Origin: Eledone cirrhosa
Taxonomy: Eukaryota
NCBI GenBank assembly: GCA_964016885.1
Contig: OZ024740.1
Span: 379,936,001 to 380,000,000, forward strand
Reading direction: 5' to 3'
DNA length: 64,000 nucleotides
The position numbers and the translations under genes were made by a program. Below the pieces are notes generated by a model. The model saw nothing but the letters and a program-made list of their open reading frames with translations, did no database searches and was not told the DNA's origin. The number at the start of each line of letters is the position of its first letter. Within the stretch, counting starts at the first letter, position 1. This document shows, piece by piece, positions 7,867 to 33,856 of the stretch.

Positions 7867-9576
7867 TCAGTTGGCAACAAGTAAATGATGGAATTGGTTG
7901 TTATATGCAGGATTGCCTATGTTGCTCAGAGCTTCTATGAAAGACTTACGACTGTCTGGAACTAAAGGGTTGTTTGGACTTAAAGTGTTGGGCATAAAAT
8001 CAGTGAAGGGCAAGCTGCCATGAGCTGGAGACAGTTGGAAAGGGTTTGAAAGTGGGGGCTGGTAAAAATCCCGAAGAGTCAAACCAGTTGATGATGGAGA
8101 GGGCAGAGGTGGTTGGGGAGATTGTTGGTGAGGTTGCGTTTGTGAGTTTCCCTGTTGTAAGAGAGTCTGATTGAGTTGTTGGTGGTGAGGTAGAGGAGAA
8201 GTTGCTGACACATCATGAGAGGATGCTGGTGAGAGCAGATTTGACTGAGAAGCAACTATTGGTTTCTGATTCATAGATGCTATATATCTATGATGTGGAT
8301 GCTGAACTTGCTGTTGTTGTGGCTGTTGATGGTGTTGATCAAATAAAAAATCAATCCTTGGATCACGTGGGGAAAGAGATCTGGGTCGACTGGCCAATGT
8401 TGTGCCTGGAGCTGATGAACCTGGGCTCGGGTGGCCAAAACCCATACCAACTCGTAGTGCAGAATTAGCTAAAGTTGGGGAAACACCAACTGTAGGTACA
8501 CTTGATGAGGGTCCAGGTCCAATTAGACTACCACCAGTAGGGGTTACTGGTGAAGACTGGAGGGATGAACCAGCAGCTCTTTGTCGGAAGTAATTTCGGA
8601 ATTCAATAGGAGATAATCTAGTTGGACGTTTAACCTGGCTCTTCAGTTTGGTTGAGCCAAACTTAGTCTGTGCAAATGATGAGGCTGTGAATTGTGGAGA
8701 TGTTAGATTTGGTTTGGTTAAAAAAGATGTAGGCCGTGAGGCAATGACAGGTGTAGCATTGGTGATGACTGGACTAGACAGCTGACAAGATGGCACAGTT
8801 GCAGAAGGAGAAACAGGGGCTGCAGCAGTTGAAATGTTAGTATTTGAATTGTTTGCATTGTTACTGGCGGTGTTATTACTATTGTTGTTGTTGTTGTCAG
8901 ATACAGACAAATTATTTATGGCAACAACAGTAGTAGAAACAGCTTCAGGAGATGGAGCATGAACAACAGTGACTGTTGTTGAGCCAGGAGCTTGGTTATT
9001 AACAGTGGACAAATTAGTACTTGCAGTTGAATTGAAGAGAGTAGTGGACGGGGAGGCAGCTGTACTCCAGCCAGCTGGTGAAGTTGGGGATGATGGAGAT
9101 AGACTCAAACTGCTCAATGAAGATGATACTGAATCTATTGGCTTAAAGCATTGAGCTTCTGGATTAAAACCTTTATTTGCTGCCTGTACCTCATGATCAA
9201 CTGTATCAAGAAGTTCATCATCTTTCTTGTCACTATATAAGATTTTGACGGTGCCTTTCTCACTAAGGCGGTATGAGACCTCAGACGGATCAATCCAAAG
9301 GGTTAAATCTGCTGGTAGATAGCTTCTGACTTCACCAATCTCTAAGCCACTTCCATAAACAGCTTTCTCAATATCAGGATCAACTTTTTCACCATTAACT
9401 CGGATGCATCGGTAAGCTGAGCCCTTATTGGGTCGCTCAGGATACCAGTGACCATTAAATTTTGTTTTCATACGTTTTTCCAGTTCCTGACCAAACATAT
9501 CCACACGTCGCCGGGGAAGTTTGTTGTAGAGATAAGAAATTATGAAATTAAGAGCCACGGATACTTCAACATGCAT
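7867..9576 (-). CDS. Tob: Tob/BTG-family antiproliferative protein (Tob1/Tob2-like; CAF1/CCR4-NOT and PABP adaptor), 569 aa, single coding exon
   Basis: N-terminal BTG/APRO domain (LNFIISYLYNKLPRRRV...GHWYPERPNKGSAYRCI...LPADLTLWIDPSEVSYRL), PAM2 motif GFNPEAQCFKPI, Tob-specific FTASSFAQTKFGSTKLK, Q/P/S-rich tail ending LLVAN; AAAC-ATG start context; tandem TGA TAA stops. Confidence 0.97.
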   Translation of the reverse strand: MHVEVSVALNFIISYLYNKLPRRRVDMFGQELEKRMKTKFNGHWYPERPNKGSAYRCIRVNGEKVDPDIEKAVYGSGLEIGEVRSYLPADLTLWIDPSEVSYRLSEKGTVKILYSDKKDDELLDTVDHEVQAANKGFNPEAQCFKPIDSVSSSLSSLSLSPSSPTSPAGWSTAASPSTTLFNSTASTNLSTVNNQAPGSTTVTVVHAPSPEAVSTTVVAINNLSVSDNNNNNSNNTASNNANNSNTNISTAAAPVSPSATVPSCQLSSPVITNATPVIASRPTSFLTKPNLTSPQFTASSFAQTKFGSTKLKSQVKRPTRLSPIEFRNYFRQRAAGSSLQSSPVTPTGGSLIGPGPSSSVPTVGVSPTLANSALRVGMGFGHPSPGSSAPGTTLASRPRSLSPRDPRIDFLFDQHHQQPQQQQVQHPHHRYIASMNQKPIVASQSNLLSPASSHDVSATSPLPHHQQLNQTLLQQGNSQTQPHQQSPQPPLPSPSSTGLTLRDFYQPPLSNPFQLSPAHGSLPFTDFMPNTLSPNNPLVPDSRKSFIEALSNIGNPAYNNQFHHLLVAN

Positions 9577-9706
9577 GTTTTAGCTTCTTAGAAACAATGT
9601 CAAAGATGCAATGTAATAGCTTGTAGTCAAGATTTTTTCTGTTATTTTTCAGGTTGCTTCTTTGGCAAGTTAAATACAATTTTCACAAAGGTTTTATCAC
9701 GTTCTC

Positions 9707-17440: not shown

Positions 17441-17471
<31 letters not shown>

Positions 17472-17472
<1 letters not shown>

Positions 17473-17748
17473 AGTAGTAACACGACAGTTAGTTCACCAT
17501 ATCAAGAACAAATGTTTCACCTTAAGCAGATCTTCAGCTCGAAATAAGTCTGGCTATATGGATGCGTATTCATACGGTTGTTTTTCCTTTTCCGTACAGC
17601 CAAACTTAGTCCGAGCTGAAGATCCGCATAAGGTGAAACATTTGTTCTCGGTATGGTGAACTAACTGTCATGTTACTACTTCTACCAAACTCATCCCATG
17701 GACTGAGTGTTCTACTACTACGGATATAACCCTCCAGTGTTCCACCTT
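17472..17748 (+). mobile_element. Fold-back element in (TA)n with hammerhead-like motif; probable Penelope-like pseudo-LTR remnant
   Basis: ~90-bp imperfect inverted arms (17472-17562, 17591-17681) plus a unique tail; (TA)n on both sides; CTGAAGA...GAAAC core in each arm. Confidence 0.7.
17611..17651 (+). ncRNA. Minimal type-I hammerhead ribozyme-like motif (inverted copy on minus strand at 17502-17542)
   Basis: CCGAG-CTGAAGA-TCC gcataa GGT-GAAACA tt TGT-T-CTCGG: helix I CCGAG/CTCGG, conserved core, short helix II, helix III ACA/TGT, GUU site. Confidence 0.6.
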
Positions 17749-17974
17749 TATATATAAATATATATATATATACACACACACACATATATATTATAAAGAG
17801 TTGGGACATGATGGATGGGCTCTTGCGATTTCAACAGCAAGAGCTCAGTCCTCGGGTCCAAACTCTATTATATAGCCATACTCTACTACCCCAAGTATTG
17901 AGTATTCTGTTGAGTAATGATCTAACTAGTTTTAAATTGGTTCTATCCTGATCACACACACACACACACACAAT

Positions 17975-26950: not shown

Positions 26951-29419
26951 CACCTAAAGGTAAAAGCAATAATCATATCTCGCGATGAATTAGCAGCATA
27001 AGAATATATACTTCAATGAGAATCGAACTAGATTTGTGGACTTGATTCCCCAATCGAACATATAAATGAAGTGTAAAACTTCTATTACTAGAGACTATCC
27101 AAGCAATTAGTGATTTCAATAAGATCAGTTGATTAAAATCCTTAGACAATACAGATTGAAGTGGATTGCGTCTTCAAAGCCGACTGCTGAAGGCAACGGA
27201 GATGTTTCTATCTTATTAGATATCCTCAGTAAAGCATATTTAGCTCAGTTGGCTAAAATAAGAGTGATCAATACGCACATACGCACACACACATACATAG
27301 ACACGCACGCACGCATACATATATGCATACATACAAACATACATACATACATATAGTGTAATGATTCTGATAATGAATGTCAATAATATGACTAAAGGAA
27401 AATTCTCAAGAGACCGCTCTGCATGTGAAATGAAAGGTAGTTGATTAAGTCGCCAGTAATGCTTTATTAGTATTTTATTTTATTGACCCTAGCAGAATCA
27501 GCGTTAAATTTGACCTTGTCGGGATTTGAACTCAAAATGGATATTTAGAATAAATTATAGGGAGTTTTGTTAGATGTTCCATGTACCCAGCTAATCTTTC
27601 GTTTTAGCGATAATAAAATAACGAGATCGTGCATTGACACATGCTATAAATTTGCAAGGGGAAGATATAGTTGTATGAAACGTGCTAATATATTATTGCT
27701 ACCTATTTCACCAACCACAATGAAGAGCATATATACATCTATGGTTACATATTATCATCATCATAGTTTTGAGTCCGCTTCCCATTTTTTATTTGTTGGA
27801 CCGGTCGTTACGGCCTGGAGTCAGGATTTATTCGGATTTACCACTAGATGGATTGGGACACCACGTCTCGCACGTACGTTTCATTTTTGACGTGGTTTCC
27901 ACGGTTGAATGCTCTTCCTAATACCAACCACTATACAGGGTGGACTGGGTGAATATTATCGTGGCAGTAGCATTAAAAATGTCATGTCCTTGACTGGATT
28001 AAAGAGTCCTCTTTACACTACACTGTCACGCTCGATCTTCAAACACTTTACAGATTCTACTGAGTGCATTTTATCAAGCTCCACCACTAGAGAGGAAGCC
28101 TTGTCCATTGTAAAACGAGAGTCCTCCTTGTAGTAGTTATTCTACCGGGGCAAACGTGCGCAAACTTGCTCTTTAATATATTCAGGTGATAAAATTTACA
28201 GGGACTCACTGTCATGTTTCAGTTATTTAAAAACGTTCAGCCATTTTCTGCGATACCGTCTTAATCATAATATGTAATAGCAGTTTGCAAGCAGATTTGA
28301 TAGCTTGCCAAAACAAAATTATGTAACTAATTTACTGAGAAGAATAAACAAATACCTCATCATTCTTGATGAAAATATTAGCTTCCAAAAGAAATCAGAT
28401 ATAAAGTAATCATGTATATATATATGTGTGTGTTTTATGCTTGTATATATATGTCTGTGTGTATATCTCTCTCTCTATATATATATATATGTGTATGTGT
28501 GTGTGTATATCTATGTGTGTGTGTTATGCATGAATACATATACTACACATAGAAACTTCAAACCATTTCGAGAAACATCTAACTCATATTAATGTTAATA
28601 ATAATTCTAGAAACAAACAAACTAAAACAAATTACATTGGAACACAAACATGATAACACACACACACACGCACGACAACACACACACATGACAACACACA
28701 CACATGACAACACACACACATGACAACACACACACCTATATAGAGAGTAGCATCTATGTGCGTGTGAAGTAAACATGTAGACAAGCATCCCTCCCACGTT
28801 GATCTTTAGATAAGTAAATGTTCTTTCTGAAGACGTTGTCCAACACGTCCAGACAGGTAAGTAGACAAAGACAATATGTTATTCTTGCATTGACTGATAC
28901 CGTATCAAAGTAGATATACCAGCAAATAGAGAAACCTCTACGTGGTTGGCCGATTTACTAGAAATAGTCAAATCTCTTTCTCTCTCACTGCCCCTCAAAT
29001 CCCAGTTTTTAGAGAAAACAAATATAATCGATAATGTAGATCTAAATATAGAAATAAATGGGGTGAACACGAATGGAATGACTGATTAAAGGATTGCGTG
29101 ATGTGAGCTGAGGTGGGGGATAACAAAATAACCAAAATAGTAAAAAATATTGGATATTATTTTATGAATGTAATAGTGTCAGATGAACTTAGTAGCAAGA
29201 TTAACATTTGCTAAGGGCTCCGGATTTTTAGGATCCCCGTGCTAAGTGTTTTAAACTATGGAACTACTACTGCCTTTAACATTTATATTATACATTTCGA
29301 AATATTTAGGGACCTTTACAGTATATAGTGCCCGCGTAATCCGGCACGAGAATGTAAGAAAGTGTCCCCTACTAGATTAACTTGAACAATATCCAAGTCT
29401 TAGTATTTCCTTACAGCCC

Positions 29420-33139: not shown

Positions 33140-33171
33140 TATATACATATTATATATATTATATACATTAT

Positions 33172-33215
<44 letters not shown>

Positions 33216-33216
33216 C

Positions 33217-33760
33217 ACGGAAAAAATGAAACGATATTTCATTTCCCACTCTTAGTACGGCTGTTACTTAAATATAAGTATGTACACGTACATACATATA
33301 TGTATACCGACGTACAGTAGTATGTATATATATATATACATACATGCACACATATATATATGCACGTATGGATTCACCGAACATTTATTATAATGCTCGG
33401 TGTGTTTGTAAACAAACATCCCGTATTAAGCCGTAGTGTCTAGCAACCACCGTTGCTCGTTTGTTCAACACTGACAAAGGAACGCTGTACTAGTTTCAAG
33501 CTTGTTAGCTATCGTCAGCAACGTATACCTTCCTGCCAGATTGTTGAACGTATATACTTACCTTATGCATATTAACGGCTGAGTAGCCCATTTTGCATAT
33601 CGAGTTGCTTAATCGGCCGGGTGCACCGAAAACGATAACGGAAAAAATGAAACGATATTTAATTTCCCACTCTTAGTACGGCTGTTACTTAAATATAAGT
33701 ATGTACACGTACATACATATATGTATACCGACGTATGTATGTACGTGTACATACTTATAT
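33217..33760 (-). mobile_element. Retrozyme-like / non-autonomous Penelope-like element: partial tandem (421-bp period), terminal inversion, hammerhead ribozyme
   Basis: 98-bp direct repeats (33217-33314, 33638-33735), 27-bp inverted repeat (33693-33719, 33734-33760), CpG-rich interior, (TA)n flanks. Confidence 0.75.
33477..33531 (-). ncRNA. Minimal type-I hammerhead ribozyme
   Basis: Minus strand AAGGTAT-ACGTTG-CTGACGA-TAGCT aaca AGCTT-GAAAC-TA-GTA-CAGCGT-TCCTT: helix I ACGTTG/CAGCGT plus AAGG/CCTT, intact CUGANGA and GAAA core, helix II AGCT/AGCT, palindromic ACTAGT helix III, GUA cleavage triplet. Confidence 0.8.
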
Positions 33761-33856
33761 ATATTATATACATATATACATATATTATATACATATATAT
33801 ATATATTATATACATATATATATTATATACATATATATATATATAATATACATATA

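Follow-up and report, generated by a model that had tools for sequence, protein, structure and literature searches.

A probable retrozyme repeat of Eledone cirrhosa with a lineage-limited splice donor-like site beside its predicted hammerhead ribozyme

A 544-nt insertion in the genome of Eledone cirrhosa probably belongs to an abundant family of ~422-nt retrozyme repeats, which would be cut by paired hammerhead ribozymes and re-inserted in the manner of Penelope-like elements (PLEs), with the 91-nt 'intron' around the ribozyme as a by-product. The insertion was delimited by sequence inspection in the window, i.e. the whole 64,000-nt stretch of DNA that was analysed, and lies on the minus strand as an island within (TA)n, which flanks it on both sides. 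It contains a single unit of 421 nt, to which are added a terminal direct repeat of 98 nt (33735-33638 equals 33314-33217) and, at the 5' end, a short inverted duplication. The following features were assigned (position, strand, feature and, in brackets, the basis of the assignment):

33217..33760, minus strand: whole insertion (sequence; the 3' ends of relatives meet (TA)n at the same place)
33556..33564, minus strand: perfect donor-like AAG/GTAAGT, lineage-specific, with GAAAGT in other lineages (sequence, copy counts)
33528..33549, minus strand: predicted 5' strand of the extended helix I or closing stem (fold model, copy alignment)
33519..33524, minus strand: proximal 5' strand of helix I, covarying with 33487-33482 (alignment of 30 copies)
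33512..33518, minus strand: hammerhead core box CUGANGA, here CTGACGA (sequence; genome matches to the core pattern)
33498..33511, minus strand: predicted helix II with the branch-like CTAAC (fold model, close copies)
33488..33497, minus strand: GAAA box (33497-33494), palindromic helix III and GUA triplet (33490-33488) (sequence, duplex model)
33463..33487, minus strand: predicted 3' strand of helix I and its extension, holding the pyrimidine tract, the proposed acceptor AG and an earlier CAG (33487-33485) (fold model, alignment, sequence)

When the sequence was re-read, the GT of the donor (33561-33560), the branch-like CTAAC (33508-33504, with its A at 33505) and the acceptor-like tract TTCCTTTGTCAG (33482-33471, with the AG at 33472-33471) were found on the minus strand where the sequence-only reading had placed them. 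From donor to AG the putative intron measures 91 nt and encloses the CUGANGA, GAAA and GUA motifs, thereby bracketing the whole hammerhead. Donor, branch, tract and AG are all present in the window copy and in the lineage that carries the GT donor (the GT lineage).

The ribozyme core, searched as an exact 31-letter pattern, gave 25,669 matches in the genome (control: 0). A DNA search of the genome returned 747 candidates, of which 40 were scored and 30 loci were fetched; these contained head-to-tail arrays as well as inverted, 5'-truncated copies. Arrays were spaced at 420-426 nt, corresponding to a tandem, non-coding unit of ~422 nt, and 59 distinct core-to-core units measured 380-540 nt. Consecutive ribozyme-bearing units were present at other loci, e.g. 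L002, L010, L124 and L169. The 3' ends of relatives mostly met (TA)n at one place, and their 5' ends were variable and carried inverted 5' copies. The core was kept in every lineage seen, including lineages more than 70 substitutions per unit apart. Short non-coding tandem units with a type I hammerhead each, dispersed in many copies, are the make-up of non-LTR retrozymes, and the family is likely to be one; fixed 3' ends, variable 5' ends and inverted 5' copies are the pattern of Penelope-like insertion, and the retrozyme is probably derived from such an element. At 33600-33592 (minus strand), ~80 nt before the core and inside a conserved hairpin, all lineage majorities have ATGCAAAT, which we take to be octamer-like and which is possibly an internal promoter element; the window copy is the one of 64 copies in which it is altered.

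The boxes of a type I hammerhead (CUGANGA, GAAA and an NUH triplet, here GUA) are present in the window copy and kept across lineages. Segment 33460-33575 folded at -32 kcal/mol (z = -3.29 against 200 shuffles). In the fold, helix II has 4 bp and a 4-nt loop, in which A 33505 sits, and its base is formed in the window copy by a U.U mismatch instead of the closing G10.1-C11.1 pair; in the most diverged lineage this position is U-A or C.A. Helix III is a 6-nt palindrome whose closure within a monomer is disallowed by the energy model, and a 6-bp intermolecular duplex scored -6.8 kcal/mol. Helix III is predicted to pair only between two ribozymes, and cleavage is predicted after 33488. The window copy holds one ribozyme only, not two consecutive ribozyme-bearing units, and presumably could therefore cleave only together with a second transcript.

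For 30 hand-picked copies from several lineages, the hammerhead structure was paired in 93.7% of cells, which was equalled by 0 of 500 shuffles, and slid controls reached 28-44%. Helix I, which is open-ended, was 94.4% paired, a value that is not a probability, the 30 copies being related; one of its pairs changed on both sides (G-U in 10, U-G in 8 and A-U in 7 of the 30 copies). Helices II and III were set by the pattern that chose the aligned copies and yield no covariation evidence. Rfam gave 0 matches at gathering in the whole window, and no hammerhead was among the 71 matches at E<=10 in 33150-33800, which were mostly miRNA models on TA-rich hairpins and were taken as chance. As Rfam gave no hammerhead match, the ribozyme was called from motif, fold and covariation; it is better supported than the intron. 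Motifs, fold and repeat anatomy bear out the earlier proposal of a minimal, Penelope-type hammerhead in a pLTR-like repeat, for which the need of a dimer is predicted.

Fold model and alignment also agree with the suggestion that the pyrimidine tract and AG form one strand of helix I: both were predicted to be paired, with an unpaired probability of 0.00-0.16 at 11 of 12 positions. The idea that ribozyme folding would hide both tract and branch point stands for the tract and AG; the branch A at 33505 lies in the loop of helix II, not in a stem, and was predicted to be unpaired (1.0). The donor site was partly accessible in the model (unpaired 0.41-0.95).

From this anatomy and from published retrozymes we infer a cycle of dimer cleavage, circularisation and mobilisation in trans. 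Tandem arrays would be transcribed, neighbouring hammerheads would pair via the helix III palindrome and unit-length RNA would be cut out. This RNA would probably be circularised by a host ligase and copied into (TA)n by a Neptune-type RT-endonuclease acting in trans, leaving partial tandems and inverted 5' ends. The GT would have come from a single A-to-T change within GAAAGT, a hairpin arm, with an 8-nt deletion occurring afterwards, and the tract, the AG and the branch-like word would likely be kept as strands and loop of the ribozyme.

Potential partners are many in the genome (150 scored matches to RT-GIY-YIG elements), and most of the elements inspected contain the CX4CxxC linker, a mark of Neptune elements that passages of PMC8557442 link to (TA)n targeting. 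One autonomous Neptune-type family has a hammerhead with a U.U in helix II and a palindromic helix III ~385 nt after the stop codon; its members (L144, L146, L149, L155 and L156) show this ribozyme at the 3' end, with a 3-bp helix II flanked by U.U. The U.U is common to several PLE-associated hammerheads in the genome. Against the retrozyme reading with Penelope-like re-insertion counts that none of the 50 GIY-YIG loci inspected (of 150) contained an autonomous element homologous to the unit. Repeat copies were present at 3 of these 50 loci and look like independent insertions. A PLE fragment directly upstream of a copy (L039) was rejected as a pLTR junction, being the N-terminal RT part and not the end of the ORF. 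Copies at L085, L152 and L153 were likewise rejected as pLTRs: they lie on the opposite strand, behind the element's own ribozyme, or are absent from five other PLE loci of the same family.

Metazoan non-LTR retrozymes were described by Cervera and de la Pena (2020), with a reported range of 150-450 bp in the passages of PMC7229834 considered here. The present repeat resembles those described there in being short, AT-rich, non-coding, tandem and dispersed with one type I hammerhead per unit, in its tens of thousands of copies and in its predicted dimer dependence. It also shares the U.U at the base of helix II with the axolotl retrozyme hammerhead HHR_Amex2, which according to section 15 of that paper cleaves, and does so better as a dimer. 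Unlike the retrozymes of these passages, it has units of 422-490 nt, at or above the reported range, and inserts in (TA)n with inverted 5' copies; splice-like signals surround its ribozyme, a feature unmentioned in the same passages. Retrozymes have been derived from the pLTRs of Penelope-like elements in passages of a 2026 preprint (bioRxiv 10.64898/2026.07.22.740005). With the pLTR hammerheads of Neptune-type PLEs, as presented in parts of PMC4209133, PMC8557442 and this preprint, the repeat has in common a short palindromic helix III, a partial tandem and inverted insertion structure and the (TA)n target; unlike these elements, it has no ORF and no conserved G10.1-C11.1 pair. Via target site and ribozyme shape the family ties retrozymes to Neptune-type PLEs. 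It is probably a further retrozyme family, large and with several datable lineages, which is useful but expected.

The sequence-only reading took the overlap of an intron with a hammerhead to be undescribed. The literature already contains such an overlap with a Penelope hammerhead: in D. virilis Penelope, a 75-bp 5'UTR intron is spliced and D. willistoni elements of 67% identity have kept its splice sites (passages of PMC2377424), its 3' end lies at the 5' end of helix I, and spliced and unspliced RNA have different ribozymes (passages of PMC4209133). As in the parts of these two papers considered, a short putative intron in a pLTR-like repeat overlaps the ribozyme here. The D. virilis intron, as described in these passages, ends at the 5' end of helix I, whereas the putative intron here would enclose the whole core; splice-site conservation extends there to 67% identity, whereas the present donor is not conserved among lineages more than 90% alike. 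An intron enclosing a whole retrozyme hammerhead was not found in the literature searched, which covered few subscription journals and main texts only, nor in passages of PMC6765202, PMC6431247 and PMC13282606; the family may already be annotated in repeat libraries.

Copies were counted at the donor position with exact 19-letter patterns, which gave 4,933 with GT, 8,231 with GA and 11,624 with GA in a sister lineage. GT was thus present in 4,933 of the 24,788 counted copies (20%) and GA in 19,855; a looser count of 14,582, in which one mismatch was allowed, mixes GT and GA. The sequence-only reading had named a lack of splice-signal conservation among copies as refuting its proposal, and this is what was found: GT is missing from 19,855 of 24,788 counted copies, with the core kept in all lineages seen. 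A splice-or-cleave switch conserved in the family, as proposed earlier, is not supported by a donor GT in 20% of the counted copies, and since only about a fifth of the copies have the donor, the switch is likely incidental and not how the family works.

Among the 64 closest copies, the splice signals read G in 63, T in 61, A in 64 and G in 63, and the branch word was CTAAC in 20 and CTAAT in 44; as these copies are ~96% alike, agreement of splice signals among them is uninformative. For 184 distinct fetched copies, whose loci were chosen by pattern and do not represent genome proportions, GT was found in 93 of the 96 copies of the short form, which has an 8-nt deletion, and in 1 of the 88 copies of the long form, so that GT and deletion go together. 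In 103 copies GT occurred without this deletion; because 3 of the 5 inspected had GT-lineage flanks, the order of events suggested is substitution first and deletion later. Divergence from the own majority was 0.023 in the GT lineage and 0.041-0.075 in four GA groups. Least diverged was the sister GA lineage, with 0.016 (9 units, 5 loci) versus 0.026 (29 GT units). This lineage (L166-L175, L152:7287-7997) is made up of 466-500-nt units in near-identical copies, with an internal (TA)n of variable length and a weaker pyrimidine tract, and is likely the most active at present. It has a GTAAGT (7/9) of its own further upstream of the ribozyme, with a perfect reverse complement 6 nt upstream.

In GA copies, the donor position belongs to a perfect palindrome of 16 nt, of which it forms one arm and which folds into a hairpin. 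A tree placed the GT copies among GA lineages; its root was arbitrary and its support weak, and one GA group fell within the GT group. The GT and ancestral-type majorities are separated by 16 substitutions, and the ancestral-type unit has no donor above 6/9. Across 96 GT-lineage copies, private changes in the donor occurred at 0.020, compared with a background of 0.019; CTAA changed once in 384 cells and AG once in 192, both below this background, and both are also ribozyme positions. From the counts, the divergence, the palindrome, the copies with GT but without the deletion and the loosely agreeing tree, it is most likely that the donor is a recent gain in one lineage and that the family amplified before and alongside without it. 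The reverse, an ancestral GT lost in most lineages, is unlikely: the most diverged lineages are among those with GA, and with GA the palindrome stays perfect.

A working 91-nt spliceosomal intron, gained in the GT lineage by this single A-to-T change and enclosing its own hammerhead, is unlikely. It would make splicing and self-cleavage compete in the GT lineage only, as a splice-or-cleave switch: the ribozyme would be removed by splicing, or tandem units would be back-spliced into 331-nt ribozyme-free circles. The donor is perfect, the pyrimidine tract scores 9/10, and the branch is a YTRAY 34 nt upstream of the AG, which its C/T variant leaves intact; the GT lineage reached ~4,900 copies, and a spliced intron that touches the hammerhead is known from D. 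virilis Penelope. Chance figures are low for the donor (0.3-2%) and the acceptor (0.6-5%). When the unit was dinucleotide-shuffled 3,000 times, 0.3% of the shuffles had a 9/9 donor; at window density (7 sites across 128 kb, both strands of the window counted), one is expected in ~2% of units. Only one of the 1,287 single changes that the ancestral-type unit allows gives a 9/9 donor, i.e. ~1% by chance over 16 substitutions. Shuffles contained branch, tract and YAG together in 0.6% of cases, and window density predicts the combination in ~5% of units; the criteria were set after the site was seen, and the site drops out of a stricter version barring earlier AGs. The splice signals beat typical chance and make the intron a candidate; set against the many windows scanned, these figures leave a real but small chance of function. 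For the by-product reading, the perfect 9/9 donor is a cost (chance ~1% for that step), as are the changes in CTAA and AG below background, though these are also helix positions, and the GTAAGT (7/9) upstream in the least diverged lineage.

Against splicing counts that 80% of the counted copies amplified without the GT donor, that the donor decays at the background rate, that acceptor and tract would be buried in a long stem according to the fold model, and that the repeat has no ORF whose expression an intron could serve. Moreover, two AGs intervene between the branch A and the proposed acceptor, 15 nt (33491-33490) and 20 nt (33486-33485) downstream of the former. U2-type introns take as acceptor the first suitable AG downstream of their branch point, and the AG at 33472-33471 is not the first. 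No spliced copy was found in the genome: the predicted spliced junction gave 0 matches at 1 mismatch, and junctions to the two earlier AGs likewise gave 0 genome matches. The upstream flank continuing other than with GT gave 327 matches, of which 30 were inspected; these contained no splice junction and were mostly older relatives. The flanks were 89-101 nt apart in all 115 of 157 copies that had both, the downstream flank being unmatched in 42. In four sequence runs of unrecorded kind, all contigs, aligned to 33215-33770, 33470/33562 was not among the 14 joints listed, a result that bears on neither splicing nor expression. The lack of spliced genomic copies is weak evidence against splicing, because Penelope-like elements retain introns on transposition (passages of PMC2377424 and PMC3846280). 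If the intron did work, the ~4,900 GT and ~19,900 GA sister copies would amount to a natural before-and-after experiment on intron gain. The GT lineage would then exemplify a recent gain whose ancestral form without the intron still shares its genome, and spliceosome and ribozyme would be natural competitors for one 91-nt stretch.

It is quite improbable that the donor site serves without the 91-nt intron, by binding U1 snRNP or by being used now and then as a cryptic donor in host or read-through transcripts. U1 has roles outside splicing, and once bound it could help the repeat RNA to be transcribed or make it more stable. Both recently amplified lineages have GTAAGT upstream of the ribozyme, at different places, and the donor is predicted to be partly accessible; however, in the sister lineage the motif pairs with its perfect reverse complement and is explained as a hairpin arm, shuffling produces GTAAGT in 18% of units, and older lineages have no donor above 6/9. 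Least of all would we expect the hammerhead to be catalytically negligible and the repeat to spread as a passive pLTR-like template with neither arm of the switch working: the U.U at the base of helix II, the lack of a monomeric helix III and of an Rfam match, the weak activity in vitro of metazoan PLE hammerheads (passages of PMC4209133) and the insertion in vitro by an Anolis PLE that did not need cleavage (passages of PMC11167929) would fit, but the core has survived in lineages separated by more than 70 substitutions per unit, and an axolotl hammerhead with the same U.U cleaves (passages of PMC7229834).

Other features of the window were noted alongside. At 27229 (minus strand), a lone CUGANGA...GAAA motif has a 4-bp helix and a loop as in the majority of the repeat family, without an NUH or helix I match, and is probably due to chance or a decayed relative. 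The BTG-family gene at 7867-9579 was the sole Pfam find among 5 of the 88 window ORFs and is unrelated to the repeat; it is a single ORF of 570 aa on the minus strand, and the repeat insertion lies 24 kb upstream on the same strand. Upstream of this ORF, a segment of ~100 nt is duplicated and each of its two copies ends in a perfect donor (10663 and 12026, minus strand); they possibly represent alternative 5' UTR exons. A second, unrelated hammerhead family is present at 17450-17750 as a head-to-head inverted pair (cores at 17616, plus strand, and 17537, minus strand), adjoins (TA)n and also has U.U at the base of helix II. The plus-strand core at 17616 is preceded at 17 nt by a strong pyrimidine tract and CAG, an arrangement like that of D. 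virilis; in relatives of this family (L143, L145, L156 and L171) the tract is kept and the AG not always.
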